The notes below the pieces were generated by a model. That model saw only the letters and a list, made by a program, of their open reading frames with translations. It was not told where the DNA came from and made no database searches. A DNA stretch of 34,138 nucleotides from Candidatus Omnitrophota bacterium (GTDB lineage: Bacteria; Omnitrophota; Gorgyraeia; JABMRN01; RBG-13-46-9). Position 1 is the first letter of the stretch; the number at the start of each line of letters is the position of its first letter. Of the stretch, positions 1 through 30,799 are shown in pieces. The stretch is from assembly GCA_016927795.1 (NCBI GenBank), contig JAFGLX010000083.1, positions 1 through 34,138 on the forward strand, in the 5' to 3' direction. The position numbers were made by a program, and so were the translations under genes.

Positions 1-525
1 AATTCTTATGTTGGAGAAAAATACAGAACGCGTTTCAGCTGTGCCCGATACGGAAACGTTGTAGGTTCGCGGGGAAGCGTCATTCCGCTTTTTAATAAAC
101 AAAAGGATACAGGCACGATCACAATTACGGATAAGAAGATGACACGTTTCTGGATTACCCTGGAGCAGGGGGTTGAATTTGTCATAAAAATGCTTAATAA
201 AATGCACGGAGGCGAAGTCTTTATTCCTAAGATACCAAGCATGAGGATTGTAGATTTGGCAGAAGCAATAGCTCCCAAATGCAAGATCAAATTGATCGGG
301 ATAAGGCCCGGGGAGAAGTTACACGAATGCCTTATTACCGAAAATGAAGCCAGGCATACGCTGGAATTTGACGACTTTTTTGTAATTGAACCGGAGCACC
401 CCTGGTGGGGCGTGGAAAATTGGCGAGGCGGCAAAACCTTGCCGGAAGATTTTAGTTATACAAGCGAAAAAAATACTAAATGGCTAACCAAGGCACAATT
501 ACATAAGATGCTAAAGGATATTTAG
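1..525 (+). CDS. pseB: UDP-N-acetylglucosamine 4,6-dehydratase (inverting), PseB/FlaA1/CapD family, C-terminal fragment; the 5' end lies outside the window
   Basis: Frame 1 is open from nt 1 (my translation: NSYVGEKYRTRFSCARYGNVVGSRGSVIPLFNKQKDTGTITITDKKMTRFW...) and runs into the listed 139-525 ORF. 'RYGNVVGSRGSVIP', 'ITD..MTRFWITL' and 'IGIRPGEKLHE' are hallmark C-terminal motifs of the Polysacc_synt_2/PseB family. It heads a pse-type operon. Confidence 0.85.
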   Translation, partial: NSYVGEKYRTRFSCARYGNVVGSRGSVIPLFNKQKDTGTITITDKKMTRFWITLEQGVEFVIKMLNKMHGGEVFIPKIPSMRIVDLAEAIAPKCKIKLIGIRPGEKLHECLITENEARHTLEFDDFFVIEPEHPWWGVENWRGGKTLPEDFSYTSEKNTKWLTKAQLHKMLKDI

Positions 526-528
526 CTC

Positions 529-1284
529 ATGGGTTTTCAGGGTAAGATTATCGCAAGCATAGAGGCGCGATTAGGTTCTAGGAGGCTACCCGGGAAGGCA
601 ATGAAAAAAATCTTAGGGAAGCCCATGCTGGAGTTAATGGTAGAAAGAGTTAAGAGGGCGCGTTTTATTGATGAGATTGTTATAGCGACATCCGTAAACC
701 CGGTCGATGACGCAATCAAGGCCCTAAGCGACAAATTGGGGGTAAAATGCTTCAGGGGGAGCGAAGACGACGTATTGGATAGGGTTCTCAAAGCCGTAAA
801 GCATTACGGCGGAGAACATATCGTTGAGTTGTGGGGCGACACACCCTTAATTGACCCTTTAATCATAGATGAAGTTATTAACTATTATTTCCGAAATAAA
901 CTTGACCTGGCTTCAACGTGCCTTGACCGCACTTTTCCGTGGGGAATGAGCGTATTGGTGTTTCCGACCCGGGTGCTGGATGAAGTTTCTCTGGTAACAA
1001 ACGACCCGGTTGACAGAGAAAACGTATCGAATTATATATACGAGCACCCGGAGAAATACAAAATAGGGCACTTACCGTGTCCTCCTGAATTAAACAGGCC
1101 GGAAATAAGGCTTACGGTTGACGAAGAGCCCGATTTCGAACTTGTTAAAATAATTTTTGAGAAGTTAGGGGCAAATAACACACTATTTTCTACGTTGGAC
1201 ATTATAAGATTTCTGGATAAGAATCCTGAATTTATAGAAATCAATAAATATGTTAAACAAAGAAAGCCAAGAGGCGATATCTAA
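529..1284 (+). CDS. Cytidylyltransferase, SpsF/PseF-like (CTP_transf_3 family); probable CMP-nonulosonate synthetase
   Basis: N-terminal 'IASIEARLGSRRLPGKAMKKILGKPMLELMVERVKRARFIDEIVIATS' is the typical nucleotide-binding signature of SpsF/NeuA-type cytidylyltransferases. The ATG lies 3 nt after the pseB stop. It is the only nucleotidyltransferase in the window. Confidence 0.7.
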   Translation: MGFQGKIIASIEARLGSRRLPGKAMKKILGKPMLELMVERVKRARFIDEIVIATSVNPVDDAIKALSDKLGVKCFRGSEDDVLDRVLKAVKHYGGEHIVELWGDTPLIDPLIIDEVINYYFRNKLDLASTCLDRTFPWGMSVLVFPTRVLDEVSLVTNDPVDRENVSNYIYEHPEKYKIGHLPCPPELNRPEIRLTVDEEPDFELVKIIFEKLGANNTLFSTLDIIRFLDKNPEFIEINKYVKQRKPRGDI

Positions 1285-2362
1285 TATAAAGACCGTTGAA
1301 AGGAACGGCGGGTCTTTTAAACCGCTGTGGGAAGAGTTCTGCAAAAAAAATGCTATTCCCGTATATTACACCATTGGCTGGCTTGAATTTTGCAGATGCA
1401 TCACACGGGAAAATTTTATAAGTGACGCAAGTTTTTTGATCACTAAGGACAACAAGCCTGTTTCGATTTGCCCTTTAATAATGGAAAGCGGGCGTTACGG
1501 AAAACAATTTTCCGTAAAGAACGGGCATCTCATGAGGGCTCCTGCATTCGAGGCGACCTTATCCTTTAAGGAGAGAAAGAAAATAGAAAAAGCTGTGTTT
1601 TTACATATTGAAGAATTGGCGCGTGCCGAGGAAGTATTGCTACACAGGGCCTTAATAGACCCCATGCTTATAATAGATCAGAGGTTTTACTGTAATTACC
1701 TATCCGAATTTTCCTATGTCGACTGTTCCATTCTGACCAATATTATCGACCTTAAATTGCCCGAGCAAACATTATGGGGCAATCTAAGGAAAAGTTACAG
1801 GCCCCTCATAAAAGGCGAAACTAAAAAATATGAAGTCATGTTTTTGGATTTTAAGAATATATCGGAGAGATTATTCGCGGAGTTCGAAAACCTCTATTTT
1901 TTAGCAAGCGGAAAGCACGTTTACAGCAGGCAGGAATGGGCAATCTTGTGCGAATTAGTGCGACAGGATAAAGGCATGTTGACCGTAGCTAAAACCGGCA
2001 ATAAAGCGATAGGCGGCGCCTATTTTAACCACGATAGCGGCAAGGCATATTATTCATTGGGCGCGAATCATCCGCAATATGAAAAGAACTATTTTATCGG
2101 GCATCGCTTGATTTGGGAAGCCATAACATATTACATAAGTAGAGGATTTCGTTGGCTGGAATTGGGATGGCAGTTTTACCCAGAGCAGCTGCTGGAAAAG
2201 CCCAGCGAAAAAGAAATAAATATTTCATATTTTAAAAGAGGGTTTGGCGGCATGAATTTTCCCCTCCACAGGGGTATCAGGTTCTTTAACGACGAGATAA
2301 AGAAAAAGTTCATAGACGAAAGCCTAAGCGCTTATCGATCCGGGAGGGATAAAAATGTTTAA
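1250..2362 (+). CDS. FemAB/CelD-like (Acetyltransf_6-type GNAT fold) acyl- or aminoacyl-transferase
   Basis: 'LWGNLRKSYRPLIKGETKKYEV', 'VAKTGNKAIGGAYFNHDSGKAYYSLGAN' and 'IGHRLIWEAITYYISRGFRWLELG' follow the conserved block pattern of FemX/FemAB and CelD/BioF2-like acyltransferases. The start overlaps the upstream gene by 35 nt and there is no later in-frame Met until about residue 78. Confidence 0.55.
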   Translation: MLNKESQEAISNIKTVERNGGSFKPLWEEFCKKNAIPVYYTIGWLEFCRCITRENFISDASFLITKDNKPVSICPLIMESGRYGKQFSVKNGHLMRAPAFEATLSFKERKKIEKAVFLHIEELARAEEVLLHRALIDPMLIIDQRFYCNYLSEFSYVDCSILTNIIDLKLPEQTLWGNLRKSYRPLIKGETKKYEVMFLDFKNISERLFAEFENLYFLASGKHVYSRQEWAILCELVRQDKGMLTVAKTGNKAIGGAYFNHDSGKAYYSLGANHPQYEKNYFIGHRLIWEAITYYISRGFRWLELGWQFYPEQLLEKPSEKEINISYFKRGFGGMNFPLHRGIRFFNDEIKKKFIDESLSAYRSGRDKNV

Positions 2363-3353
2363 GGTCGGGATAGTAGGATGCGGACATATAGCGAGTACTT
2401 TTGACGATGATCCTATGAGAAAGTATGTTTCGACTCATATAGGCGCTTACCGGGCGAACAGAAATACAGATGTTGTTGCCGTATGCGATATTGACCGGAA
2501 AAAACTCCGGGCGTGCATGAAAAAGTGGGATATAAAAAGCGGGTACACATCCGTGCAAAAAATGCTCGACAGAGAAAAAATAGACATACTGAGCATATGT
2601 ACGCCTGTAGAAACTCACGGCGCTATTTTGAGAAAAGCGGTGAATTTTCCCCTGAAGGCTATATTTTGCGAAAAACCGCTGGCAGATTCGACAAGCGAAG
2701 CAAAAAAGATAGTCAATATATGCAAACGTAAAAAAATAATTTTACAAGTAAACCACCAAAGGCGATTTGACCAGCTCCACGCGCGGGTGAGAGATGTCAT
2801 CCGCTATGGAAAATTGGGCGATGTTCAGCAGGTAACATTTTACTACACGGCCGGCATAAAAAATACAGGCTCCCACATGTTTGATTTGTTCTTGTTTCTG
2901 TTTGGCAAAGCCAAGGAGGTAATGGCATTTTCGAGCACCAACCGTTCCCATAAATTTCATGACCCCAATCTGGACGGATTTGTAAGATTCGAAAACGGAA
3001 TATTGGGTGTTTTTCAGGCATGTGATGCAAAAAAATACGTAATTTTTGAACTAAACTGCCTGTTGCAGGAAGGGAGAATTGTTATAAGAGACAGCGGCTT
3101 TTCCGTGGATTTCTACGTGTCCGGAAGAAGCAAATATTTTGCAGGGTATAGGGAACTCCTCAAGGCGAAGCCGCATTTAAAAGTAGAATATAAAAGGGAC
3201 TTTATGGTAAAGGCTGTGAGGCATCTTGTGGACTGTGTCAAAAAGAGCAAAGAGCCGATTTCATCGGGCAATGACGGAGTGGCTGTTTTGGAGTTGATTG
3301 AGGCCGCAAGTTCTTCGGCAGCCAAAAATGGAAAAAAAATACTTTTGAAGTAA
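2355..3353 (+). CDS. Gfo/Idh/MocA family NAD(P)-dependent oxidoreductase
   Basis: N-terminal Rossmann motif 'MFKVGIVGCGHIAS', 'CDIDRKK', 'ILSICTPVETHGAI' and 'IFCEKPLA' (the EKP motif of this family). GGGAGGG Shine-Dalgarno 5 nt upstream of the ATG. 8-nt overlap with the upstream gene. Confidence 0.8.
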   Translation: MFKVGIVGCGHIASTFDDDPMRKYVSTHIGAYRANRNTDVVAVCDIDRKKLRACMKKWDIKSGYTSVQKMLDREKIDILSICTPVETHGAILRKAVNFPLKAIFCEKPLADSTSEAKKIVNICKRKKIILQVNHQRRFDQLHARVRDVIRYGKLGDVQQVTFYYTAGIKNTGSHMFDLFLFLFGKAKEVMAFSSTNRSHKFHDPNLDGFVRFENGILGVFQACDAKKYVIFELNCLLQEGRIVIRDSGFSVDFYVSGRSKYFAGYRELLKAKPHLKVEYKRDFMVKAVRHLVDCVKKSKEPISSGNDGVAVLELIEAASSSAAKNGKKILLK

Positions 3354-4641: not shown

Positions 4642-6119
4642 TGAAAGTTCATATTCTGACCGAAGGCGGAAAAGGTATCGGGCTCGGCCATATTACCAGA
4701 TGTATTTCATTATATCAAGCTTTTAAGAAGAGGGGCATTTCGCCGACTTTGGTAATAAATGGCGACGACTCGGTCCGTAAGCTTTTAAAGGGAAAAAAAT
4801 ACCGCGTTTTCAATTGGCTGAAAGAACAAAAAAAGCTTTTCCAGATGATAAGAAAAGGCGACATCGCTGTTATAGATTCATATCTGGCAGGGCATAGAAC
4901 CTATAAGAAGATATCAGATTTAGCGCCTATTTCCGCATACCTCGACGATTATAAAAGGCTGGTTTATCCGCGCGGTATAGTAATAAATGGCGGTTTTCAA
5001 GCCAAAGATATAAGGTATCCCCGGAAAGAAAACATTAAGTATTTGCTGGGGCCCGGTTTTATCCCTATAAGAACGGAATTCCGCGATATGCCCCCCAGAA
5101 AAATAAGGCCGGTAATAAAAAGCATTTTGATATCATTCGGCGGATGCGACACGAAAAACCTGACGGCGAAGCTTTTAGAATTTTTAAACGCCATGTACCC
5201 TAATGTCAGAAAAAATATTCTTATAAGTGACGCATTCAAGGATACACAGGTAGCTGAAAAGCCGGCCGAACCGATGTGCGTTTTTATTAAAAATCCGGAC
5301 CCAATGAAACTAAAGACCGTTATGCTCAACTCTGACATCGCTATCTCAGCGGGCGGGCAGACGTTGAACGAGTTAGCCAGAACCGGAACGCCAACAATAG
5401 GGGTATGCGTTGCCGAGAACCAAAAAATGCACCTTTCCTACTGGGCAGAGACAGGTTTTTTGAGCTATGCAGGCCGTTACGATGATAAGGACCTTCTAAA
5501 AAAGGTGCACCGTGCTATTATAAGCTTACAGGATAAGAGAGTGCGAAAGGGTATGTCTCTGTGCGGCAGGGAGACTGTTGACGGGCGTGGTCCGGAAAGA
5601 ATTATAAAATTTATCTTATCCGAATATTTCAGAAACAGGCTCACCTTGCAGAAGGCCACTCTTCGGGACGCAAGGGAAATTTTTAATCTTTCGACGGACA
5701 AAGAAGTAAGAAAGAATTCCTTTCAGCCAAAAAGGTTTGATTTCAAACATCACCTGGGATGGCTTCGTGAAAGACTTAGAGACGTAAATTGTGTTTTTTA
5801 TATATTTAAAATCGGCCATGAGTTTATAGGACAGTTGAGATTTAACGTGGACAACGAAAAAAAATGCGCCACAGTAAACATAAGCCTGGTAGAAAAAATG
5901 CGAAACTTCAATTTATCGTCTTTCCTTGTAGAAAATTCTATTCGTAAACTGCTTAAACATCACAAGCACCTTCGGTCAATAAGGGCTTATGTAAAAAGGC
6001 ACAACATAGCCTCCGTTAAACTGTTTGAGCGCACAAATTTTAAATTTAGCGGAAACAGAACCGTAAAAGGCGCAAAAACAAGAGTTTATATACGAAAGGT
6101 TTCTGCGGGCAATGTTTAA
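4638..6119 (+). CDS. Bifunctional PseG-like UDP-sugar hydrolase (N-terminal, about 330 aa) fused to a PseH-like GNAT N-acetyltransferase (C-terminal, about 150 aa)
   Basis: The N-terminus 'KVHILTEGGKGIGLGHITRCISLYQAF' and 'ISAGGQTLNELARTGTPTIGV' match the SpsG/PseG GT-B-like hydrolase pattern. The C-terminus 'LTLQKATLRDAREIFNLSTDKEVRKNSF...HHLGWL...FIGQLRF...IRAYVKRHNIASVKLFERTNFKFSG' matches the PseH-type GNAT pattern. ATGA overlap with the aminotransferase gene. Confidence 0.7.
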   Translation: MMKVHILTEGGKGIGLGHITRCISLYQAFKKRGISPTLVINGDDSVRKLLKGKKYRVFNWLKEQKKLFQMIRKGDIAVIDSYLAGHRTYKKISDLAPISAYLDDYKRLVYPRGIVINGGFQAKDIRYPRKENIKYLLGPGFIPIRTEFRDMPPRKIRPVIKSILISFGGCDTKNLTAKLLEFLNAMYPNVRKNILISDAFKDTQVAEKPAEPMCVFIKNPDPMKLKTVMLNSDIAISAGGQTLNELARTGTPTIGVCVAENQKMHLSYWAETGFLSYAGRYDDKDLLKKVHRAIISLQDKRVRKGMSLCGRETVDGRGPERIIKFILSEYFRNRLTLQKATLRDAREIFNLSTDKEVRKNSFQPKRFDFKHHLGWLRERLRDVNCVFYIFKIGHEFIGQLRFNVDNEKKCATVNISLVEKMRNFNLSSFLVENSIRKLLKHHKHLRSIRAYVKRHNIASVKLFERTNFKFSGNRTVKGAKTRVYIRKVSAGNV

Positions 6120-7140
6120 AAAAATAAATAAAAAGAATTCCGCAACGTTCGTCATAGCGGAAATATCGGCAAATCACAACCAAGACCTGGAGAGGGCCGT
6201 GTCTTTGATTAAAAAAGCGCGGGAATGCGGAGCTGATGCGGTTAAATTTCAGACCTATACCCCCGACACTATTACCTTAAACGTAAATAACAAATATTTC
6301 AGAGTCAAGCACCCAAAATGGGGCAACCGTACTTTATACCAATTATATAAAACCGCCTATACGCCGTGGCATTGGTTCGCCAGGCTGAAGAAAGTTGCGG
6401 ACAGGGCAGGAATAGTTTTTTTCTCAACCGCCTTTGACAAAAGCGCGGTGGATTTTTTGGAGAACTTAAACGTTCCGTTTCATAAGATAGCATCCTTTGA
6501 GTTAGTGGATTTGCCTCTCATTGAATATGCGGCAGGTACGAAGAAGCCGCTTATATTGTCAACCGGTATGGCTACGATTCCGGAGATAAAGGAAGCGTTT
6601 TTTACTGCGAAGAGAGCCGGGGCAAAAGATGTCGTACTTCTGAAATGCGTAAGCAATTACCCCGCTCGCCCCGATGATATGAATCTAAAAGAGATAATCA
6701 AGTTGAAAAAAATTTTCAAATGCCCTATAGGTCTTTCCGACCATAGCCTTGGGACGGCAGTCGCATTGGCGGCGGTTTCATTGGGCGCTAAAGTAATCGA
6801 GAAACATTTCACCTTATCGAAAAAGTCAAAAGGGCCGGATAATTTCTTTTCCATTGAGCCGCAAGAGCTGAAATCCCTTGTGGAGAACATAAGAATTGTC
6901 GAGAGGGCATTAGGTAGCGATGCCCGCAAGCTGACGGCTGAAGAGAAGGGGAGCCTTGTTTTCAGGCGTTCGCTGTTTGCAGTACGGGACATAAAAAAAG
7001 GGGAAATCTTTACGGAAGATAAAATAAGGTCTATAAGACCGGCCTACGGTCTGCACCCGAAATTTTTAAAATACCTTTTAGGGAGAAAGGCCAGGAAAGA
7101 CATAAAAAAAGGAATGCCCTTGAGCAAGGATATGCTATGA
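6112..7140 (+). CDS. pseI: NeuB-family nonulosonic acid synthase, most likely pseudaminic acid synthase
   Basis: 'FVIAEISANHNQDLERAVSLIKKARECGADAVKFQTY', 'STGMATIPEI' and 'GLSDHSLG', plus a C-terminal SAF-like domain 'RRSLFAVRDIKKGEIFTEDKIRSIRP'. PseI rather than NeuB/LegI is inferred from the PseB/PseG/PseH context. Confidence 0.8.
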   Translation: MFKKINKKNSATFVIAEISANHNQDLERAVSLIKKARECGADAVKFQTYTPDTITLNVNNKYFRVKHPKWGNRTLYQLYKTAYTPWHWFARLKKVADRAGIVFFSTAFDKSAVDFLENLNVPFHKIASFELVDLPLIEYAAGTKKPLILSTGMATIPEIKEAFFTAKRAGAKDVVLLKCVSNYPARPDDMNLKEIIKLKKIFKCPIGLSDHSLGTAVALAAVSLGAKVIEKHFTLSKKSKGPDNFFSIEPQELKSLVENIRIVERALGSDARKLTAEEKGSLVFRRSLFAVRDIKKGEIFTEDKIRSIRPAYGLHPKFLKYLLGRKARKDIKKGMPLSKDML

Positions 7141-8990
7141 AATTAATATTATTCGGCTATGTGGACAAGCTCTCCTCATTGTGCCCCTTTCTTAGGCGCC
7201 ATAGTTTGCCTGGTGGCGCTGAAGCGGCAACACTGGTTTCAATGAATCGTTTTGCCGGAGAAACGCTTGGTCTCGGAGAAATAATGTATTCCGAAGAGTT
7301 TTTAAAAAAAGAGGATTTTGAATACATGGACGAATACATCTCCCGGACAAGCCGGATATGCCGGGAGTTTTTGTCAAACGATGAAAAGACAAGCGCGTTA
7401 AAAGGCATAAAGGTCACAGATGTATTAGAACTGGAGATTTACATGTATTTGTGCACGGTGATAAAAAACCTGCAGGTAACGTTGAACATCGTAGAGGCAA
7501 TTAATCCCTCGGAGATTCTTATTATAGGCGAAAAATCTACAGATGGCCTGGAGCAAATATCAAGGTTTCTGGCGGAGCGTCTTAATATTAAATCAACCTA
7601 CATAACGGTTAAAAACGGCCTCGTCCCCGAAGCCGGCATGAGAAAAATTTGTGAAAAAGCAAGTTCCTTTGCTGCAAAGATAATAACAGAACTTTTAGAC
7701 AGACTTGAAAGATTCCTCCTTTTAAGATCAAGAAAACACGGAAAATCCATTATAATGGATTATAGGTTTCCCGAGCTTGTTAAAGGCATAGAGAAAGAAC
7801 ACGTAGCCATGCCGTATATTGCCGGTTGGGGATTGCGGATCAGGCTGAATTTTATTAAACAGAGAAAGCTATACCTGTCTTTTTTGAAAGTCCATAATCC
7901 ACTGAACAAAAGAAGAGGCAGAGGATACTTTCTCGCGATAAATAAAATTCTTGAAAAAGGCTTTGCCGAAAACGAATATTTACGGTACAGGGGCTACAAC
8001 ATTTACCGCATATTGAAAAATATATTTCGCGAACAAATTGAGAACGAATTACCTTTGATGAAAGAAAATATTTCAATGCTTTGCCGTTTTTTTGACGGTG
8101 TAGGCCCGAAGGCGGTTATAGTGAGGGATTCCACGCGAAACTGGGAACATGCGCTTACCTTAGTGGCAAAAAGTAAGAATCTCCCCAGCATTGTTGTGCA
8201 GCATGGTATTACAAGTATAATGAATGTTTACGCGAAACAACACGCTACGGCAGTAGCTTTTTGGGGCGATGTTTACCTGAGGTTATATAAGGCCGCCGGT
8301 ACCGATACGTCAAAATCGAAGGTAACCGGTTACCCGCAACACGACCGTATATACGCAGGGCAGGGTGAAAGGTATAAAAGGTACCGTAAGATACTCTCGG
8401 ATTCAGGGGCCGATCCCGACAAAAAAACGGTTGTATATCTCGCCAGCTGCATAAAGTATTACCCGATAAATTCTGTATACCTTACGCCTGAGGTATCATT
8501 TTTTCTCCTGAGAGAGGTGTTAAGCGTTTTTGGAACGCTTAAGAATCTGCAACTAATAATAAAACTGCATCCTTTTTATGACAGGCAGGAGTACCCGCGC
8601 TTCAAGGAGGAAGTATCCGGGTTTACAAACGCATTTATTGTAAGAAACGCGGATATCCCGGATTTATTCAGCGGTTCTATCTGTGTCGTATCAGAGCTTT
8701 TCTCGAGCGCGATAATGGATGCGATTATACTGAAGAAACCCGTTATATTTTTTAATGCAATGGAAAAGGAGGAAGCGATACCCATAGAAGAACGGAAGGT
8801 GGGCATAGAAGTAAGATCGCGGGCAGATTTAATGGATGCGCTTCAACGTATCGTTGCCTCAGATAACACGCATGACCTGTTTCCGAATAAAGCATTTGAA
8901 GACTTCGTTGGGGATTTTGCGTATAAGGTAGACGGACGCTCTTCCGAAAGGGTCAGGCATTTTATAAACGATTTAATCCCCTCCGCATAA
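7137..8990 (+). CDS. Two-domain protein of unknown function; the C-terminal half resembles TagB/TagF-type CDP-glycerol glycerophosphotransferases (GT-B-like)
   Basis: C-terminal blocks 'IVVQHGITS' (cf. the WHG motif), 'TVVYLASC', 'LIIKLHPFYD' (cf. the K-x-HP motif) and 'VSELFSSAIMDAIILKKPVIFFN' follow the order of Glyphos_transf family motifs. I recognise no family in the N-terminal ~330 aa. ATGA overlap with the synthase gene. Confidence 0.45.
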   Translation: MKLILFGYVDKLSSLCPFLRRHSLPGGAEAATLVSMNRFAGETLGLGEIMYSEEFLKKEDFEYMDEYISRTSRICREFLSNDEKTSALKGIKVTDVLELEIYMYLCTVIKNLQVTLNIVEAINPSEILIIGEKSTDGLEQISRFLAERLNIKSTYITVKNGLVPEAGMRKICEKASSFAAKIITELLDRLERFLLLRSRKHGKSIIMDYRFPELVKGIEKEHVAMPYIAGWGLRIRLNFIKQRKLYLSFLKVHNPLNKRRGRGYFLAINKILEKGFAENEYLRYRGYNIYRILKNIFREQIENELPLMKENISMLCRFFDGVGPKAVIVRDSTRNWEHALTLVAKSKNLPSIVVQHGITSIMNVYAKQHATAVAFWGDVYLRLYKAAGTDTSKSKVTGYPQHDRIYAGQGERYKRYRKILSDSGADPDKKTVVYLASCIKYYPINSVYLTPEVSFFLLREVLSVFGTLKNLQLIIKLHPFYDRQEYPRFKEEVSGFTNAFIVRNADIPDLFSGSICVVSELFSSAIMDAIILKKPVIFFNAMEKEEAIPIEERKVGIEVRSRADLMDALQRIVASDNTHDLFPNKAFEDFVGDFAYKVDGRSSERVRHFINDLIPSA

Positions 8991-9043: not shown

Positions 9044-10507
9044 ATGAAAGACAAAATAATAAAGAGCACTCTGGTATATTCCATTTCCATATTTATCTCA
9101 AGGATATTCGGCTTTTTCCGAAGTATCATAGTGGCGCGTTTTCTCGGCCCCAAGCTTTACGGTATGTGGAACGCGCTTTCAATTATTCTAGAGTACAACC
9201 GTTATTCAAGCCTCGGCGTACTAACCGCCATGAACCGGGAAATACCGTTCTTTAGGGGGAAGGGTGATTCTGCCAAAGTTGAGCGCCTAAGGAGGACAGG
9301 TTTTTCTATGGCCTGCATCCCTTCTTTTGTTGTAGGGCTGATACTCACTTTAATTTCCATATTTATCAAACCTCACGCCGGAACGGAATGGGTGATGGCG
9401 CTGCGCACTATAGCGGTTCTGGTCTTTGCAAGGCAGCTTTACGAATTTTTTACGCTTTTGCTACGGTCTGACAACAGATTTTTATATTTGAGCAAAATAC
9501 TTATTTTGTTTTCGGTATCTGACCTTATACTAATATTAGTTCTGGTTATAAGATATGGCTTTTATGGATTTTTGTGGGCCATGGGCATTAACTATGTCGG
9601 GATAGTCTTATATATTTTTCTTAGAGAATACCGCCGATACAACCTCAAGCTATTTTTTGAAAAAGACATCTTGGGCTATCTTATAAGATTGGGGATGCTT
9701 ATGGCGATTATAGGCATAATTATAGATTTAAGAACAACGATTGACCGCCTTATGATAGCCAGATTTCTTGGGGTTACAGAGCTGGGTTATTTCGGCATAT
9801 CGTATGTTTTAATCCAGTTTATTTTTTTGATTCCCTCAGCGCTATCTCAGATAGTATACCCCCGTTTGGTCGAAAAATACGGTTCCTCCAACCGCGACAC
9901 ATCTACTTTGAGAAAATATATAGAAGTTTCAACCCTTGGGCTCGCTTACTTAATGCCGCTTTTAATAGGCCCGATTTTTATTCTTCTTCCTTTTGGAGTT
10001 AAGCTTTTACTGCCGCAATATATTTATGGCATTAAGGCTGCCCAGATAACCATTCTGGGCCTGTTCTTTTTTAGTACGGGCATAATTGCCGCAAATTTCC
10101 TGATTACAACAGACAGGCTTGGCTGGTATCTTGGGTTTTCATTTGTGGCTGTACTAATTAATATACTAGCGGACTATATTTTGCTTAAGATCGGATTCGG
10201 CATAGAAGGCGTTGCCTTCGGGGGAATCCTTTTTACTTCGTGTATCTACGCAACGTGCATTTTAGCCTTTGTAATGTTCCATTATCTAGGTCACGTATTC
10301 AGGGTATTCCTTTATATGATAAAAGCTTATTTCCCGTTTTTTTACACAATAGTTATATTAATGTTTTTCAGTTACCTTAAACTGGGGATGGCAAGCAGGA
10401 CGGTAGTTTTCTGCGTTTTGTACATACCACTACTGTGGAAACTCGAGCGTGATACGCAAATCCTAAGTTTGATTTTCGTTAACATACGGCAAGGCATAAA
10501 GAAATGA
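9044..10507 (+). CDS. Wzx-like oligosaccharide/polysaccharide flippase (MOP superfamily, Polysacc_synt type)
   Basis: 487 aa with roughly 12-14 hydrophobic segments. The N-terminus 'SISIFISRIFGFFRSIIVARFLGPKLYGMWNAL' is typical of Wzx/SpoVB/MurJ-like exporters. It is preceded by a 53-nt spacer carrying GGGGAGGGAG. Confidence 0.7.
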   Translation: MKDKIIKSTLVYSISIFISRIFGFFRSIIVARFLGPKLYGMWNALSIILEYNRYSSLGVLTAMNREIPFFRGKGDSAKVERLRRTGFSMACIPSFVVGLILTLISIFIKPHAGTEWVMALRTIAVLVFARQLYEFFTLLLRSDNRFLYLSKILILFSVSDLILILVLVIRYGFYGFLWAMGINYVGIVLYIFLREYRRYNLKLFFEKDILGYLIRLGMLMAIIGIIIDLRTTIDRLMIARFLGVTELGYFGISYVLIQFIFLIPSALSQIVYPRLVEKYGSSNRDTSTLRKYIEVSTLGLAYLMPLLIGPIFILLPFGVKLLLPQYIYGIKAAQITILGLFFFSTGIIAANFLITTDRLGWYLGFSFVAVLINILADYILLKIGFGIEGVAFGGILFTSCIYATCILAFVMFHYLGHVFRVFLYMIKAYFPFFYTIVILMFFSYLKLGMASRTVVFCVLYIPLLWKLERDTQILSLIFVNIRQGIKK

Positions 10508-11790
10508 CCGGCACGGAAAAAACAAAAGAAAAAATGTTGTCACGATTACTTACATGGACTCTGGTAGGCTTTTTGCTCAGATTGGCCATAATGCCTGTTA
10601 CCATGCACGGCCAGGACCTCACTTTTATAAATTATTTCCCTTACGCATTCATCACCGAAGGCGCCTGGAACCCTTACGCTTTCATAAGCATGAATTTTCC
10701 GAATTTTCCACACACTTATTACGGACCTGTACTGTTCGCAATCATGTCGGCGGCGAATTTCGTGTTTATCAAGCTGTTTAATTGCGTTACTCTCGGCAAA
10801 TTGCTTGCAATGTCGGCCGGCATGATGGCTAAAAATTCAGGTACCCTTGATTATATTCACGCCTTTTCGGGTCTATCACTCTTTAAAAATTTATTTCTGA
10901 TGAAAAGCCCGTATCTTATATTCGATTTCCTGATAGGCGGAATCCTGTTAAAGCTCGCCTCTGGAGAAAGAAAGGCGCTATCAAGCTATAAGCTCTGGAT
11001 ATTCAATGTGGTCGTTTTACATTCTGCCTACGCTGTCGGGCAATTTGATTTAATCCCGACTTTTTTTGTGATACTAGCGTTGTTATTGGCTACGGCAAAA
11101 ATGCCTTATCTTTGCATAATTTCGCTATGCCTTGGCGGAGGGACAAAGGTTTTTCCATTCATACTTGTATTACCTGCAGTTTTACTTTTGGGTAATAACT
11201 GGCGAAAGAGAGCCTTTCTTTTATTTACCGCTTTGATTACGACTCTATTTATATATTTGCCGTTTTATTTATCTTCCGGCAATGCATTGTTTGATGTTTT
11301 CGCGCAGGGACGGTATTATACAGGCATGACACATATTATATTAAGCGGCGTATTCTTTATTTTTTACATAGCGCTATCTTTAAATGCCCTGGCTGATTCC
11401 AAAAAAGACGCACCGGAAAACCAGTTATTTTATTACTTTCTTACTTTATGCTTTTTGGTTTATGCGGTAACCCCTATAGGTTTCAGGTATTTTGTCTTTG
11501 CAACACCTTTTATTGCATTACTTATTCCTGCCAATGGAAAGTTCGGTCTATTTACGTTTTTCATTGTTCTGTTTCTCGCGTTTCTGCGACTGCCAACGCG
11601 GGATGTGCAATTAGGCCTTTTTGCGCCTCTTAATCCACAATATTTTATGAGCATCCCGACCATCCAGGAGGTTATAGGAAGGTTCGTAGACATTAACATG
11701 GCTTATAAGCTGGCAGCTAGAGCACTGCTTTTCTCCTTTTTTGCTGCTGCCGGATGGGTATGGAAGATTAAAGCAAAGGAAGCGATATAA
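10504..11790 (+). CDS. Polytopic membrane protein, GT-C-like (DUF2029/GT87- or PIG-M-like) candidate lipid-phosphate-sugar-dependent glycosyltransferase
   Basis: At least 10 hydrophobic segments, with an acidic residue just after TM1 ('MHGQDLTF'). 'YYGPVLF', 'AVGQFDLIPTFFVILALLLA', 'GGGTKVFPFILVLP' and 'GFRYFVFATPF' resemble conserved GT-C blocks. ATGA overlap with the flippase gene. Confidence 0.45.
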   Translation: MTGTEKTKEKMLSRLLTWTLVGFLLRLAIMPVTMHGQDLTFINYFPYAFITEGAWNPYAFISMNFPNFPHTYYGPVLFAIMSAANFVFIKLFNCVTLGKLLAMSAGMMAKNSGTLDYIHAFSGLSLFKNLFLMKSPYLIFDFLIGGILLKLASGERKALSSYKLWIFNVVVLHSAYAVGQFDLIPTFFVILALLLATAKMPYLCIISLCLGGGTKVFPFILVLPAVLLLGNNWRKRAFLLFTALITTLFIYLPFYLSSGNALFDVFAQGRYYTGMTHIILSGVFFIFYIALSLNALADSKKDAPENQLFYYFLTLCFLVYAVTPIGFRYFVFATPFIALLIPANGKFGLFTFFIVLFLAFLRLPTRDVQLGLFAPLNPQYFMSIPTIQEVIGRFVDINMAYKLAARALLFSFFAAAGWVWKIKAKEAI

Positions 11791-12770
11791 TGAAAAAAAT
11801 TAGGGAACATCTGAAAAAGAACAGAAATTTGGTAAACATATTTTTCGTCTACTTCTTCCTTGCATTTGTGATCGGTTATATAGATTTTGACCGGAGGGTA
11901 CTGCCTTTTAAGGAAAGCACGGCTACACTTAAACGCGTCGTAGAAAGGACAGCCGTACCGCCTCTTGCGCGACGGCCTCTTGTACCTTTTACGGTATATT
12001 TTATGCATAAGGTATCTCACCTCCCGCTCGAATATACTTACGCGCTTTTCAGGTTGTTTTTTTTCATTCTGGCGTTTTGCCTTTTTCACGTCTATCTTAG
12101 ATTGTGGTTTGACGATAGGCTTGCGATGATAGGGACGCTCTCTGTGATAGCGTCCTTGCCGCTTTTTCTTACTAACTGGATTAGCGTTTTCACGGACATG
12201 CCGAACTTTGTAGCTTTTATACTGGGAACTATGTGGATTAAACAGAACAGGCACAGGCTCCTATATATATTGATACCCATAGCGACCCTTAACAAGGAGG
12301 CGATCGTTGCTATAGTTGTCCTTTATTTCCTGTACAACACACACAAAGAAAAACCGGGCATTTTGGCAAGGAGGATTGCCATAATGCTTTTCTTGTGGGC
12401 AGCCCCTTACGTATGGACAATTGTTACTTTCGGTTTGCAGACCTTTACGGATAACGGCGCCTCTTATCTTGTACCGTGTACGGTGAAGCATAACATCAAG
12501 GGGCTTTTGGCATTTTTTAAAAATCCGCACCCCTACAATCATTACTATTTTTTGATTTATTTACTGGGATTTTACTGGGTTTTGGCCTTTCGAAATTTTT
12601 CGCGCAAAGACGAGCTTTTGAAAAAATCAATCATTGTAATGGCGCTTTATTCGTTTTACGTATTCTGGAGAGTAGGCGCAATAAACGAGGTAAGGGTGTT
12701 TATACCGTTTTACGTTTACATAATACCGCTCGGACTTTTTAGTTTATTTGAGAAAAAAGAGGTTGAATAG
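11790..12770 (+). CDS. Polytopic integral membrane protein of unknown function (possibly a Wzy-like polymerase or small GT-C-like transferase)
   Basis: 326 aa with about 9 hydrophobic segments. It has 'DFD' directly after TM1, then 'RRPLVPF', 'ATLNKEAIVAIVV' and a C-terminal 'NEVRVFIPFYVYIIP'. 1-nt TAATG junction with the upstream gene. No soluble domain is recognisable. Confidence 0.55.
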   Translation: MKKIREHLKKNRNLVNIFFVYFFLAFVIGYIDFDRRVLPFKESTATLKRVVERTAVPPLARRPLVPFTVYFMHKVSHLPLEYTYALFRLFFFILAFCLFHVYLRLWFDDRLAMIGTLSVIASLPLFLTNWISVFTDMPNFVAFILGTMWIKQNRHRLLYILIPIATLNKEAIVAIVVLYFLYNTHKEKPGILARRIAIMLFLWAAPYVWTIVTFGLQTFTDNGASYLVPCTVKHNIKGLLAFFKNPHPYNHYYFLIYLLGFYWVLAFRNFSRKDELLKKSIIVMALYSFYVFWRVGAINEVRVFIPFYVYIIPLGLFSLFEKKEVE

Positions 12771-15120: not shown

Positions 15121-15846
15121 ATGAAAAATAGAGCTGTTGTTGTAATACCCACATATAACGAAAAAGATAACATATTGAGGCTTGTAGACGAGATAAGCGG
15201 TATTGTGCCCGGAGCCGATATACTGGTAGTGGACGACAATTCTCCGGACGGTACGGGGGATATTGCAGAATCCGCCAGTAAGACAAGGCCTAACCTTTCG
15301 GTTCTTCACAGGTGCAGAAAAGATGGCTTGGGGCCGGCGTATATAGAGGCGTTCAGGCATTTACTGAAAAAGAACAAATACGGGTATGTAGTCCAGATGG
15401 ATGCTGATTTTTCGCACAGCCCGAAAGACATACCGCGCCTTATCGACGCAGCGGCCGATTGCGACGTAGCTGTAGGTTCAAGATATACCAAAGGCGGAGC
15501 CGTTACCGGGAAGTGGCATGTTGCCAGAAAATGCATATCGCAGTTTGGAAATGTTTACGCAAGACTCGTTACCGGTTTAGGTATAGGTGATTGCACTGCC
15601 GGATTTAAATGTTACAACGCTAGGGTTCTCGAAAAAATAGATTTCAACAGGATTTTCTTAAACGGCTACGGTTTTCAGATACAGATGCTGTATGAATCAA
15701 AGAGGAATGATTTCCGGATATGCGAAATACCGATATTTTTCAACGAAAGGGCGAAGGGGAAATCAAAGATGGATATAACCATTGTATGGGAGGCCTTCAT
15801 TTCTCTTTTGCTTATGCGCGCCCGGGATTTATTTTCCAAAAAATGA
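15121..15846 (+). CDS. GT2 polyprenyl-phosphate mannosyltransferase-like enzyme (Dpm1/Ppm1 type, soluble form)
   Basis: 'VVIPTYNEKDNI', 'VVDDNSPDGTGDIA', 'RCRKDGLGPAYIEAF', 'VQMDADFSHSP', 'VGSRYTKGG', 'DCTAGFKCY', 'NGYGFQIQM' and 'FNERAKGKSKM' form a near-textbook Dpm1/Ppm1 motif series. 241 aa with no C-terminal TM. Confidence 0.85.
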   Translation: MKNRAVVVIPTYNEKDNILRLVDEISGIVPGADILVVDDNSPDGTGDIAESASKTRPNLSVLHRCRKDGLGPAYIEAFRHLLKKNKYGYVVQMDADFSHSPKDIPRLIDAAADCDVAVGSRYTKGGAVTGKWHVARKCISQFGNVYARLVTGLGIGDCTAGFKCYNARVLEKIDFNRIFLNGYGFQIQMLYESKRNDFRICEIPIFFNERAKGKSKMDITIVWEAFISLLLMRARDLFSKK

Positions 15847-16883
15847 AAATACTTTTTTTAACAATCGGCGACATAACTGTCGCAAGCACGAGAGCAAGGG
15901 TATACGGTTATCTGCCGTTTCTCTCGGAAAAAAATATAAGGTTCAGGATTATTTCCTACACTTCCGGGGCAAAGTGCAAAAGGGTTATTAATTTGAAAGA
16001 AGACAATCCGGCCGAGCGCGCCTTCGAAATAGCGTACAAGATATATGCGCTTGTAGGGCTCTTTCTGTTTGCGGCGATATACGATACGGTTTTCATACAG
16101 AAAGTCATTTTGCCGAAAAGAATATGGAGTATTTTAAGGCTTATTAATAAAAACATTATTTTCGATTTTGACGACGCCCTCTATCTTTACCGTGACATGT
16201 CGTATGTGCTTCGGGATTCTGAAGCCGTAGTAGTCTCGAACAGCTATCTTAAAAATTTCGTTTCCAAGTATAATAGACGTATCCATGAGCTTATAAGCCC
16301 GGTTGATGTACACAGGAAAAAACCGGGAAAAGACGGGAAATTTATCACGATAGGTTGGACGGGTTCTCCGGAGACCTCCAGGTATCTTTATCCGCTTTGT
16401 GCGGTGCTTAGGAGGCTTAGTGAGAAATTCGGCAGTTTAAACATAGAATTCATGGGTATAGGCGATAATGAGGACTTTAAGTCTTGCGGCGTCAAAAAAA
16501 CGGACTGGTCTATCGAGGGGGAGAAGAACTATCTGGCGAAGGTAGATATAGGCATCATGCCGCTTGAGGCGGATGAGTGGTCGCAGTCGAAAGCCGGTTA
16601 TAAATTGCTGCTTTTCATGTCTTACGGCATACCGTGCGTTGCCTCGCCTGTAGGGGTAAACAGTCAAATAGTCGAAGACGGCGTAAACGGTTATCTTGCG
16701 AACACCGAGGACGAATGGACGAGGAAAATGGCTTCTCTTATAGAAGACGAAAACCTTAGGGCGAGATTGGGCGAAGAAGCAATAAAGACGGTTGAAAAAA
16801 TATACAGTTATGATGCTAATTTCAGCAAGTTCTACGATGTTTTGCGGGTGAGTGAGACTATAAACAAGGAGAACCGGATATGA
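15843..16883 (+). CDS. GT-B fold glycosyltransferase (GT1/GT4-like); paralog of the 25753 gene
   Basis: I place the start at ATG 15843 ('MKILFLTIGD'), which forms an ATGA overlap with the upstream stop. The listed 15720 start would overlap the GT2 gene by 127 nt. C-terminal 'GIMPLEADEWSQSKAGYKLLLFMSYGIPCVASPVGVNSQIVEDGVNGYL' is the GT-B nucleotide-sugar binding region. Confidence 0.75.
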   Translation: MKILFLTIGDITVASTRARVYGYLPFLSEKNIRFRIISYTSGAKCKRVINLKEDNPAERAFEIAYKIYALVGLFLFAAIYDTVFIQKVILPKRIWSILRLINKNIIFDFDDALYLYRDMSYVLRDSEAVVVSNSYLKNFVSKYNRRIHELISPVDVHRKKPGKDGKFITIGWTGSPETSRYLYPLCAVLRRLSEKFGSLNIEFMGIGDNEDFKSCGVKKTDWSIEGEKNYLAKVDIGIMPLEADEWSQSKAGYKLLLFMSYGIPCVASPVGVNSQIVEDGVNGYLANTEDEWTRKMASLIEDENLRARLGEEAIKTVEKIYSYDANFSKFYDVLRVSETINKENRI

Positions 16884-17977
16884 AAATTCCATTGGTTGAC
16901 CTTAAGGCGCAGTATTCGTCGATAAAAAGTGAAATAGACAACGCCATAGCGAAGGTAATCGCTAAAACCTCCTTTATACTCGGGGAAGAAGTATCTTCCT
17001 TTGAAAACGAATTCAGTAATTTTTGCGATACCAGATACGCAGTGGGCGTAAGTTCGGGGACGGCCGCTCTTCAACTGGCCCTTGTATCTCTGGGCATAGG
17101 AGAGGGCGACGAGGTTATAACAACGCCATTTACGTTTATAGCGACATCGGAGAGCATACTCGAGGTAGGTGCGCACCCCGTATTCGTCGACATAGAGGAG
17201 GATACTTATAATATTGACGTGAAACTGGTAGAAAAAGCCATAACCAGAAAGACAAAGGCCATTATACCCGTGCATCTTTACGGCCATCCGGTGGATATGG
17301 ACCCCCTTATGGAGATTGCCAGAAAACACAATATAGCCGTTATAGAGGATGCCTGCCAAGCGCACGGCGCGTTATATAAAGGCAGAAAGGTGGGTTCAAT
17401 AGGGGATGCGGGCTGTTTCAGCTTCTATCCGGGTAAGAATCTCGGTTGTTACGGGGACGGTGGAATGCTTGTAACCAATAACGAGCAAATTTTTGAGAAA
17501 ACGAAACTTCTAAGGGACCATGGCAGAAGCGACAAATACACCCATATAGCGCACGGCTATAATTTCAGACTGGACGGCATACAGGCGGCCATCCTAAAGG
17601 TCAAGCTTAAATACCTGGAGAAATGGAACGATAAACGAAGAAAAAACGCAGGTATTTATAATGAGGGACTCTCGCCTTTGGGGTCCGTAACGCAGCCGGT
17701 TGAGAAGGAATACGCAAAACACGTTTATCACCTTTATGTGATAAGAATCAAGGAGAGGGACAAGCTGAAGCTTTTATTAAGCGAAAACAGCATAGATACA
17801 GGCATACATTATCCTATACCTTTGCATAAACAGCCGGTCTATAAAAAAATAGGTCTTTCGGACAAAAAATTACCCGTTTCGGAAAAATGCGCAAAAGATA
17901 TTTTGTCTCTTCCCATTTATGCAGAATTAGAGGAAGATGATATAAGGAAAATCTGTAATCTCATAGCAGAATTTTAA
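16880..17977 (+). CDS. DegT/DnrJ/EryC1 PLP-dependent sugar aminotransferase (WbpE/QdtB/WecE-like subgroup)
   Basis: 'MKIPLVDLKAQY', 'GVSSGTAALQLAL', 'VIEDACQAHGA' and the PLP-Lys block 'FSFYPGKNLGCYGDGG'. ATGA overlap with the upstream gene. Confidence 0.85.
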   Translation: MKIPLVDLKAQYSSIKSEIDNAIAKVIAKTSFILGEEVSSFENEFSNFCDTRYAVGVSSGTAALQLALVSLGIGEGDEVITTPFTFIATSESILEVGAHPVFVDIEEDTYNIDVKLVEKAITRKTKAIIPVHLYGHPVDMDPLMEIARKHNIAVIEDACQAHGALYKGRKVGSIGDAGCFSFYPGKNLGCYGDGGMLVTNNEQIFEKTKLLRDHGRSDKYTHIAHGYNFRLDGIQAAILKVKLKYLEKWNDKRRKNAGIYNEGLSPLGSVTQPVEKEYAKHVYHLYVIRIKERDKLKLLLSENSIDTGIHYPIPLHKQPVYKKIGLSDKKLPVSEKCAKDILSLPIYAELEEDDIRKICNLIAEF

Positions 17978-18000
17978 TCCCTAAGAGGAGTTGTGGAAGA

Positions 18001-18034
18001 GGGAGGGAGCCCCGGCCAGGCCGGGGGCTCCACT
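18001..18034 (+). promoter_or_regulatory. GC-rich intercistronic stem-loop embedded in a Shine-Dalgarno-like motif
   Basis: GGGAGGGAGCCCCGGCCAGGCCGGGGGCTCCACT. Nt 18006-18016 can pair with 18020-18031, giving about 11 bp with one bulged G (18023) and a 3-nt loop. The following sequence is ACTTTACATG, so there is no U-tract. It lies between the DegT stop (17977) and the ATG at 18039. Confidence 0.6.
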
Positions 18035-18038
18035 TTAC

Positions 18039-30798: not shown

Positions 30799-30799
30799 A

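Follow-up and report, generated by a model that had tools for sequence, protein, structure and literature searches.

Pseudaminic acid (Pse) and legionaminic acid (Leg), which are displayed on flagella, capsules, O-antigens and S-layers, bear varied N-acyl groups, which influence antigenicity, motility and recognition by phages and lectins. The 34,138-nt contig JAFGLX010000083.1 of a Candidatus Omnitrophota bacterium (GCA_016927795.1), referred to here as the window, carries a Pse operon that includes a gene for a FemAB-like protein (positions 1250 to 2362), and the question it raises is what a second kind of acyl-transfer enzyme does in a pathway that already has a PseH-like N-acetyltransferase. 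FemX enzymes move amino acids from charged tRNA onto other molecules, and a sequence-only reading of the window had put this protein forward as a candidate for the aminoacyl or unusual N-acyl decoration of a nonulosonic acid. Each computational test that was run supported that proposal, as far as sequences and a structure model can indicate. We propose that the protein is probably a tRNA-dependent aminoacyl transferase decorating an amine of a Pse-pathway intermediate, and that the Fem-like family to which it belongs is a strong candidate for the amino-acid decoration of sialic-acid-like surface sugars.

N-aminoacyl nonulosonates themselves are known, including Leg5Ac7Ala in E. coli O161 (PMC7685785), Leg5Ac7AcAla in V. 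vulnificus CMCP6 (PMC7371886) and Leg5GluNMe7Ac on C. botulinum flagellin. Full-text literature searches turned up no enzyme for attaching an amino acid to a nonulosonate, and no paper that links FemAB-type or tRNA-dependent enzymes with the tailoring of Pse or Leg. If our proposal is correct, the family would tie the substrates of translation to the tailoring of surface sugars across many phyla and in archaea, would offer a sequence-level marker by which aminoacylated nonulosonates could be predicted from genomes, and could supply enzymes for their chemoenzymatic synthesis.

Fold and family of the Fem-like protein

The open reading frame (ORF) runs from an ATG to a stop exactly over 1250 to 2362 of the forward strand, for a product of 370 aa. 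Its start is conserved in the close homologues, which open with 'MLNKK...'. The three blocks that had been quoted as a FemX/FemAB-like pattern are all present (Table 1). Aligned through a profile of 91 family members, they correspond to FERRNRSKVR, LSGALLMFAGSKSYYLYGAS and HMQYTMMKYAREHGATTYDFGG of S. aureus FemX (6snr) and also to segments of Sbb17, indicating that the blocks are no chance resemblance. A fourth block, with the family motif I-S-x-F-K-R-G-F-G-G, proved more diagnostic. Its Phe-Lys dyad, Phe328-Lys329 in the window protein, is conserved in at least 90% of the 91 members, and the block aligns with INRFKLGFGG of Sbb17 and VVKFKKGY of FemA; this alignment reached Sbb17 and FemA, and not, residue by residue, Lys305 of W. 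viridescens FemX (FemX_Wv). In FemX_Wv the dyad is Phe304-Lys305. Its Lys305 is the sole reactive residue of the active site, and DhpH-C depends on both its own Phe328 and Lys329 (review PMC12945691).

Hidden Markov models (HMMs) bore out part of the expected FemAB or Acetyltransf_6 membership. Pfam Acetyltransf_6 (PF13480) matched residues 207-307 above its gathering threshold (26.9 bits against 22), and the sole NCBIfam match was TIGR04421, 'FemAB family protein' (E 8.5e-31, 107.4 bits); the Pfam FemAB model failed to recognise the protein, a point to which we return below. The PseH model (TIGR03585) gave no match to the Fem-like protein.

An AlphaFold2 model was built on the 91-sequence alignment and compared with the PDB by Foldseek. 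The model is a confident tandem GNAT without a long coiled-coil insertion (predicted local distance difference test score, pLDDT, 96; predicted template modelling score, pTM, 0.92). Its best matches were Sbb17 and Sba18 (E ~1e-12; target-normalised template modelling (TM) scores 0.75-0.79, with 0.63/0.79 for Sbb17), followed by FemX_Wv (1ne9; TM 0.65/0.71) and then S. aureus FemA, in agreement with the likeness to FemX that had been suggested. Lower in the list, with clearly smaller TM scores, came domains of MprF and aminoacyl-phosphatidylglycerol (aminoacyl-PG) synthases (TM 0.49-0.54, E 2e-9 to 8e-8) and the tandem GNATs that use acetyl-coenzyme A (acetyl-CoA), namely VipF, GlmA and the clavulanate tandem GNAT (TM 0.39-0.52, E 1e-10 to 1e-8). 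A search of the PDB with the 91-member profile pointed the same way, retrieving Sbb17 (2.8e-6), S. aureus FemX (4.7e-5), Sba18 (2.2e-4) and FemX_Wv (0.02) and no acetyl-CoA tandem GNAT; a narrower profile of 10 sequences gave spurious matches to de novo TIM barrels only. The tRNA-binding helical arm that the sequence-only reading had proposed to look for is absent from the model. Since the arm is missing also from FemX_Wv and Sbb17, which use aminoacyl-tRNA, its absence is uninformative.

The family is large and scarcely named. An exhaustive profile search of 1.8 billion representative proteins returned 2355 relatives at E <=1e-3 and 206 clusters (50% identity) at E <=1e-30. TIGR04421 was matched by 90 of the 91 aligned members (best E 7e-35), none of them near its cut-off of 250 bits, which implies a distinct sister family that no curated model names. 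Acetyltransf_6 was matched by 72 of the 91, and Pfam LPG_synthase_C was touched by a single one. In public records the members are called 'hypothetical protein' or 'GNAT family N-acetyltransferase' and once, in C. algifaecis, 'lipid II:glycine glycyltransferase'. No homologue was found in phages, E. coli genomes gave no DNA match to an Enterobacteriaceae homologue, and a neighbour-joining tree of 75 context-labelled members did not divide cleanly along those labels.

Several relatives carry a tRNA-binding domain. The 548-aa protein P0094 ends in a complete GatB_Yqey domain (89.5 bits, E 2.6e-25), and such a tail was found at or above the Pfam cut-off in P0094, P0251, P0249, P0191, P0200 and P0241 (89.5 to 28.2 bits) and slightly under it in P0125, P0225, P0199 and P0069. 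The window protein aligns end to end, including the Phe-Lys motif, with the fusion protein P0251 (26% identity, E 4e-34). The GatB/YqeY domain is the tRNA-recognising tail of GatB (PMC2811023), and in the glutaminyl-tRNA synthetase GlnRS of D. radiodurans it enhances tRNA affinity in cis (PMC1865053). Two of the three fusion loci examined contain NeuB. In L169, from a metagenome-assembled genome (MAG) of Sulfuritalea, the genes are DegT, CTP_transf_3, the fusion, a methyltransferase, a formyltransferase and NeuB; in L170 they are NeuB, a PseB-like gene, the fusion, two PLP_IMCC1989 genes and a methyltransferase. In the third, L171, DegT and a methyltransferase come before the fusion, and a PseB-type dehydratase, a formyltransferase and a PIG-L deacetylase after it; these are genes of the nonulosonate type, with no NeuB within the stretch examined.

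Linkage to nonulosonate genes

The setting described by the sequence-only reading was confirmed: the operon contains PseI well above its cut-off, the C-terminal part of PseB, and a PseG homologue to which the PseH-like GNAT domain is fused (Table 1). An overlap of 35 nt joins the Fem-like gene to the cytidylyltransferase gene upstream of it, and one of 8 nt to the next gene downstream, for a Gfo/Idh/MocA oxidoreductase (GFO). The overlapping or abutting genes from the Fem-like gene onward imply one tightly coupled operon, in which the GFO gene is followed by that of an aminotransferase that we call DegT-long.

The association with pse/leg genes extends to homologues elsewhere. A locus scan over one genome per species, with a 17-sequence alignment as query, yielded 80 loci at 23-56% identity, distributed over Bacteroidia, Spirochaetes, Patescibacteria, Acidobacteriota, Desulfobacterales, Clostridia/Lachnospiraceae, Actinomycetota, Chloroflexota, Elusimicrobiota, Halobacteria, Woesearchaeota and Methanomicrobiaceae. 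Linkage was counted in the 53 genome loci with at least 5 kb on each side. The results showed a NeuB/PseI homologue within 8 kb in 41 of them (77%), at a median distance of 3.2 kb, and at least one nonulosonate-specific gene within 8 kb in 46 (87%). By our own estimate, NeuB occurs about once per genome, and the two genes would fall within 16 kb of sequence by chance in some 1% of cases. A gene of the aminotransferase family (PseC-like DegT, DegT-long, PLP_IMCC1989-type or class III) lay directly next to the Fem-like gene in 22 of 75 loci, and in 45 of the 75 one was no more than three genes away. On the idea that the Fem-like enzyme might replace PseH, a PseH-like GNAT was detected in 22 of the 46 loci with both Fem-like gene and PseI, a count from incomplete detection (L010 was missed despite an adjoining GNAT).

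Methyltransferases, B12 radical S-adenosylmethionine (radical-SAM) enzymes, PIG-L deacetylases, formyltransferases and ATP-grasp enzymes recur as neighbours, a content that matches the expectation for a nonulosonate tailoring toolbox. The B12 radical-SAM genes neighbour the family in 18 loci and lie upstream in L001 and L008. The gene next to the Fem-like one is often that of a DegT-like protein of PF27889, 'PLP_IMCC1989', a name that mirrors 'FemAB_IMCC1989' of TIGR04421 (17 loci; for instance L170, 11435-13463), and the two appear to form a conserved two-gene unit. Another module, present in 30 of the 80 Fem-containing loci (e.g. L011, L016, L021, L022, L026, L037, L042, L044, L063 and L168), combines an aldo/keto reductase or GFO oxidoreductase with an SpsF-type CTP_transf_3 protein and a class-III (GSA-aminomutase-like) aminotransferase, the latter two sometimes being one protein of 680-726 aa. 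PIG-L de-N-acetylases are paired with formyltransferases near the Fem-like gene in L016, L018, L023, L026, L051, L053 and L171, and such pairs could free and re-acylate N5 of the nonulosonate precursor.

Among the close homologues, which are 55-62% identical and of which the nearest with a named source comes from a Candidatus Omnitrophota MAG, all retain the cassette of cytidylyltransferase, Fem-like protein, GFO and DegT-long, and the cytidylyltransferase gene was always directly upstream of the Fem-like gene in L001, L004 and L008. In L004 the intact cassette lies amid different nonulosonate genes, and DegT-long is the sole aminotransferase in 21 kb. A plasmid of Halorussus aquaticus likewise holds together, in its curated annotation, a NeuB-family protein, an SpsF-like protein and the Fem-like 'GNAT family N-acetyltransferase', along with a class-III aminotransferase, GFO, a methyltransferase, two short-chain dehydrogenases/reductases, DegT and a polysialyltransferase-family protein. 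Further members come from Natrarchaeobius, Woesearchaeota and Methanomicrobiaceae. These archaea, like Halorussus, lack murein, which together with the NeuB/PseI linkage all but excludes a peptidoglycan function. Cultivable carriers of a homologue include Clostridium algifaecis (DSM 28783), Aquirufa beregesia, Natrarchaeobius versutus and Halorussus aquaticus.

A recurrent order in Clostridium and Lachnospiraceae runs from one or more flagellin genes through Maf (MptE-like) and a class I methyltransferase to the Fem-like gene (L029, L048, L062, L065-L067 and L071), which places the latter inside a flagellin glycosylation island. The same order recalls the N-methyl-glutamyl legionaminic acid of C. 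botulinum flagellin.

Donor, acceptor and rival explanations

We infer the following scheme, which covers donor class, acceptor, amino acid and product. The protein would act in the cytoplasm as a Fem-type transferase and would bind its acceptor in a pocket built from both GNAT domains. Charged tRNA would enter with its 3' end beside Phe328-Lys329, and Lys329 would position and stabilise the aminoacyl ester, as Lys305 does in FemX_Wv. Attack of a sugar amine on this ester would then give an amide on a Pse-pathway intermediate. Most likely the amine would be one that DegT-long of the operon produces: the 4-amino group of the UDP-hexose, which would become N7 of Pse, or else an additional amine formed together with the Gfo/Idh/MocA oxidoreductase. 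The predicted product is a Pse derivative with an aminoacyl N-substituent, perhaps acetylated or methylated afterwards, which would be CMP-activated and exported into a surface glycan.

An acyl-CoA- or acyl-carrier-dependent N-acyltransferase, serving as a second PseH-like enzyme and placing acetyl, hydroxybutanoyl or glyceroyl on the diamino sugar, would suit the Pfam label of Acetyltransf_6 ('(GNAT) domain'), the name 'GNAT family N-acetyltransferase' that PGAP gives to relatives, and the occurrence of VipF, GlmA and the clavulanate tandem GNAT among the Foldseek matches. However, the TM scores of these acetyl-CoA enzymes lie far under those of FemX and Sbb17, the PDB chains found by the family profile were all of Fem or Sbb17 type, and the GatB/YqeY tail on about ten relatives is hard to reconcile with CoA dependence. 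Read by eye, which is a weak test, neither GNAT half has the CoA pyrophosphate motif Q/R-x-x-G-x-G/A after its fourth strand. The GatB/YqeY fusions and the conserved Fem-type Phe-Lys dyad, both read from sequence, favour an aminoacyl-tRNA donor over an acyl-CoA donor. We thus regard dependence on acyl-CoA as unlikely, and the aminoacyl-tRNA option is clearly favoured. A tRNA-dependent enzyme might instead form an ester in the manner of MprF-type synthases, which aminoacylate the glycerol hydroxyl of phosphatidylglycerol; its target would be the C4 or C8 hydroxyl of Pse, or a hydroxyl on the completed glycan. The catalytic domains of MprF and the aminoacyl-PG synthases are tandem GNATs that appear in the Foldseek list, and ester-linked glycine and N-acetylglutamine are mentioned for the flagellin Pse of A. 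caviae and C. jejuni (PMC5207245); but the nearest relatives in structure and sequence, Sbb17 and FemX, make amides with amines, LPG_synthase_C reaches one member in 91, and the aminotransferase adjacent or near in most loci fits an amine acceptor, making ester formation improbable. Still further down we place a conventional FemABX cross-bridge enzyme of peptidoglycan, or an unrelated housekeeping GNAT, that came to lie in a polysaccharide locus by chance. The fold is the same as that of FemX, and one database name in C. algifaecis points to lipid II; yet linkage to NeuB/PseI in 77% of well-flanked loci from many phyla, members in archaea without murein, a gene overlapping both neighbours inside a Pse operon and a protein that PF02388 does not match leave this explanation very little room.

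Several points weigh against tRNA-dependent aminoacylation of a Pse-pathway amine. Several described N-alanyl nonulosonates carry D-alanine, which is not supplied by tRNA. Identity to any characterised Fem or Sbb17 enzyme is just 12-14%, and tandem GNATs that use acetyl-CoA exist further down the same Foldseek list. The window protein falls well short of the 250-bit cut-off of TIGR04421 and has no match to Pfam FemAB (PF02388) even at E up to 10; only 14 of the 91 relatives match that model (best E 4.5e-7). The protein itself has no GatB/YqeY tail, and the window contains no tRNA gene. Lastly, an orthologous DegT-long gene occurs in many loci that have no Fem-like gene, and the adjacency of the two in the window is no proof that the GFO/DegT-long module supplies the acceptor.

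This last point came from a control in which 80 metagenome loci, sampled by DegT-long alone, were searched with 79 diverse Fem-like queries. A Fem-like gene was found in none of the 45 loci with orthologous DegT-long; one control locus, L150, has one, but its DegT is non-orthologous. Obligatory coupling of the Fem-like gene to GFO and DegT-long was rejected on this result, which indicates that the two-gene module is a common independent Pse accessory and the Fem-like gene optional. The typical order in the control loci is PseB-PseC-PseF-PseG/H-PseI-GFO-DegT-long, and many Pse operons (L088-L142) close with cytidylyltransferase, GFO, an optional GT-B-like protein of ~374 aa and a DegT-long of ~430 aa. 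This closing set resembles an uncharacterised side branch in which pseudaminic acid is oxidised and transaminated, and through which it may gain a third amino group.

DegT-long itself is distinct from PseC. It scored 235 bits on the PseC model, under the cut-off of 423. Judged by its PDB matches (8gyh 1.5e-63, BtrR 1.6e-56, KdnA 6.5e-52, H. pylori PseC just 1.9e-30), the H. pylori enzyme is more distant from it than are 2-deoxy-scyllo-inosose aminotransferase, perosamine synthase and KdnA, the Kdo8N transaminase. A clear identity gap, with orthologues at 42% or more and PseC-like DegTs at 38% or less, shows that DegT-long is an orthologous group separate from PseC. The standard route from a sugar hydroxyl to an N-acyl amine runs through an oxidoreductase, an aminotransferase and an acyltransferase, as in WbpB/WbpE/WbpD and in KdnB/KdnA for Kdo8N, and the Fem-like gene of the window is embedded in such a set. 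Among candidate acceptors we rank first the amine that DegT-long produces. It would be the C4 amine of the UDP-hexose if DegT-long also does the work of PseC, which L004 suggests, or else a third amine formed with GFO. The canonical PseC product ranks second, N5 after de-N-acetylation third, and a hydroxyl, giving an ester, fourth.

As regards the amino acid, GatB and YqeY are tied to the biology of tRNA-Gln and tRNA-Asn, and the GatB/YqeY fusions may hint at the residue used. The GatB/YqeY association and the methyltransferases next to many members would suit a specificity for Glu or Gln, which we take as a lead and do not claim. A 1247-aa relative, P0037, fuses a B12-binding radical-SAM domain, a PseH-like Acetyltransf_3 GNAT and a Fem-like domain, which suggests that the small GNAT and the Fem-like enzyme work on one molecule. 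One possibility is that aminoacylation would be followed by N-acetylation of the new alpha-amine, like the N-acetyl-alanyl Leg of V. vulnificus.

A more far-reaching proposal, in which we place little confidence, is that the window protein is the founding example of a widespread tRNA-dependent family building amino-acid or peptide decorations on nonulosonates in Bacteria and Archaea, and that here the oxidoreductase and DegT-long would make a third amine, which would then be aminoacylated to give an aminoacyl triamino-nonulosonate. To our knowledge, a sugar of this type has not been described before.

Operon layout and comparison with known systems

Table 1. Features of the Pse operon, of the Fem-like protein and of further glycan genes in the window
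Feature	Position	Strand	Evidence or remark
PseB-type UDP-GlcNAc 4,6-dehydratase, C-terminal part, cut by window start	139..525	+	Pfam Polysacc_synt_2 80.6 bits
SpsF-type CTP_transf_3 cytidylyltransferase	529..1284	+	Pfam CTP_transf_3 102.5 bits
Fem-like tandem-GNAT protein, 370 aa, candidate aminoacyl-tRNA-dependent aminoacyl transferase	1250..2362	+	ORF, HMMs, model
Fem-like protein, LRKSYRPLIK	residues 179-188; nt 1784-1813	+	first block
Fem-like protein, IGGAYFNHDSGKAYYSLGAN	residues 254-273; nt 2009-2068	+	second block
Fem-like protein, LIWEAITYYISRGFRWLELG	residues 287-306; nt 2108-2167	+	third block
Fem-like protein, FKRGFGG	residues 328-334; nt 2231-2251	+	fourth block, containing F328-K329
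Gfo/Idh/MocA NAD(P)-dependent oxidoreductase	2355..3353	+	Pfam GFO_IDH_MocA 81.5 bits
DegT-long aminotransferase, 427 aa	3358..4641	+	Pfam DegT_DnrJ_EryC1 321 bits
PseG-like hydrolase and PseH-like GNAT fusion, 493 aa	4638..6119	+	NCBIfam, Pfam
PseI, pseudaminic acid synthase	6112..7140	+	NCBIfam PseI TIGR03586 460.5 bits (cut-off 340); Pfam NeuB + SAF
617-aa protein, C-terminal Glyphos_transf / BFO_1060-like domain	7137..8990	+	Pfam Glyphos_transf 42.5 bits
MOP/Wzx-type flippase	9044..10507	+	Pfam Polysacc_synt_3 42.1 bits
Adjacent ORFs, 428 and 326 aa	10504-11790 and 11790-12770		no Pfam match; polytopic-membrane look
GT2, GT1, DegT and PMT_2 genes	15121-19340		ArnC/ArnB/ArnT-like amino-sugar set
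GFO, hexapeptide acetyltransferase, epimerase/dehydratase, DegT, hexapeptide acetyltransferase	28318-32603		WbpB/WbpD/WbpE-like set for a diacetamido sugar

The truncated first gene of the operon matches the NCBIfam PseB model TIGR03589 over model positions 197-323 (E 7.4e-49). The cytidylyltransferase reaches only 30 bits on the PseF model against a cut-off of 205, and its best PDB match is 6oew, 'cytidylyltransferase' (3e-38); it is presumed to be the CMP-nonulosonate synthetase of the operon, and the remaining window, which has other glycan genes, contains neither a second NeuB nor a second cytidylyltransferase. The best PDB match of the oxidoreductase is the inositol 2-dehydrogenase 4hkt (8e-14). 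Both halves of the fusion protein score under the NCBIfam equivalog cut-offs, with 129.6 bits on PseG (cut-off 153.6) over residues 2-264 and 31.5 bits on PseH, together with Pfam Acetyltransf_3, over residues 334-472. Such PseG-PseH fusions are recurrent in many environmental Pse operons (~1.4-1.5 kb; L104, L115, L122, L126 and L142). The 617-aa protein also gives weak NCBIfam matches to BFO_1060 and surf_polysacc and is a candidate nonulosonate transferase; a gene of this Glyphos_transf type is kept after PseI or after the cassette in L001 and L004. Equivalents of the 428-aa and 326-aa membrane ORFs come after the flippase in L004, and these ORFs may be polymerase- or ligase-like components of the glycan pathway. 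The G+C content of the window is uniform, at ~42%.

Comparison with known systems may start from the pathway itself. PseH and LegH act at the point proposed for the Fem-like protein, acylating the amine made by the pathway aminotransferase; PseH, however, is a single small GNAT that uses acetyl-CoA, and in the window the PseH-like domain is separate from the Fem-like protein. Lea3 of E. coli O161 has been proposed as the 'alanyltransferase' for Leg5Ac7Ala (PMC7685785); it is likened here, at the same pathway point, by description only. The nearest case in the literature is in the type B flagellin glycan locus of C. difficile, where the FemAB-superfamily protein CDR20291_0244 lies beside the FdtB aminotransferase and has been proposed to acylate a Fuc3N that bears a Gly/Ala/taurine peptide cap (PMC5207246, PMC5207245). 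Several relatives of the Fem-like protein also lie in flagellin-Maf islands, in Clostridia/Lachnospiraceae, a likeness by description; the sugar of CDR20291_0244 is the hexose Fuc3N and not a nonulosonate.

The curated family TIGR04421, 'FemAB_IMCC1989' (hypothetical equivalog), is a sister family, on which the Fem-like group scores far under 250 bits; the two share PLP_IMCC1989 (PF27889) as partner or frequent neighbour, as in L170. With FemX_Wv the window protein shares the double GNAT fold (TM 0.65/0.71 to 1ne9), and the acceptor of that enzyme, UDP-MurNAc-pentapeptide, is a nucleotide sugar, analogous to the UDP-sugar acceptor proposed here. Unlike FemA and FemB, the window protein has no coiled-coil arm, and it differs from S. 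aureus FemX, FemA and FemB and from FemX_Wv in having no PF02388 match, no cell-wall context and archaeal family members.

The closest likeness is to Sbb17 and Sba18 (PDB 9wqw, 9wqx and 9wqy), which were deposited as aminoacyl-tRNA-dependent peptide synthases of streptothricin-type pathways, bound to streptothrisamine. They, too, are tandem GNATs with an I-x-x-F-K-x-G-F-G-G motif and no coiled-coil arm, and their acceptor is an amine on an amino sugar and not a peptidoglycan stem peptide. The Fem-like protein Orf11 of the BD-12 pathway likewise performs Gly-tRNA-dependent glycylation of the streptothrisamine amino sugar in vitro (PMC12945691). In contrast to Sbb17 and Sba18, to which its identity is 12-14%, the window protein is 60-80 residues longer, its family resides in surface nonulosonate loci of diverse bacteria and archaea and not in actinomycete antibiotic clusters, and its predicted acceptor is a nucleotide-linked or free precursor of a nine-carbon acidic sugar. 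Judged from these comparisons, in which Lea3 figures by description only, the family appears to form a new and so far unnamed branch of the Fem/aminoacyl-tRNA transferases, one whose predicted acceptors are also of a new class.

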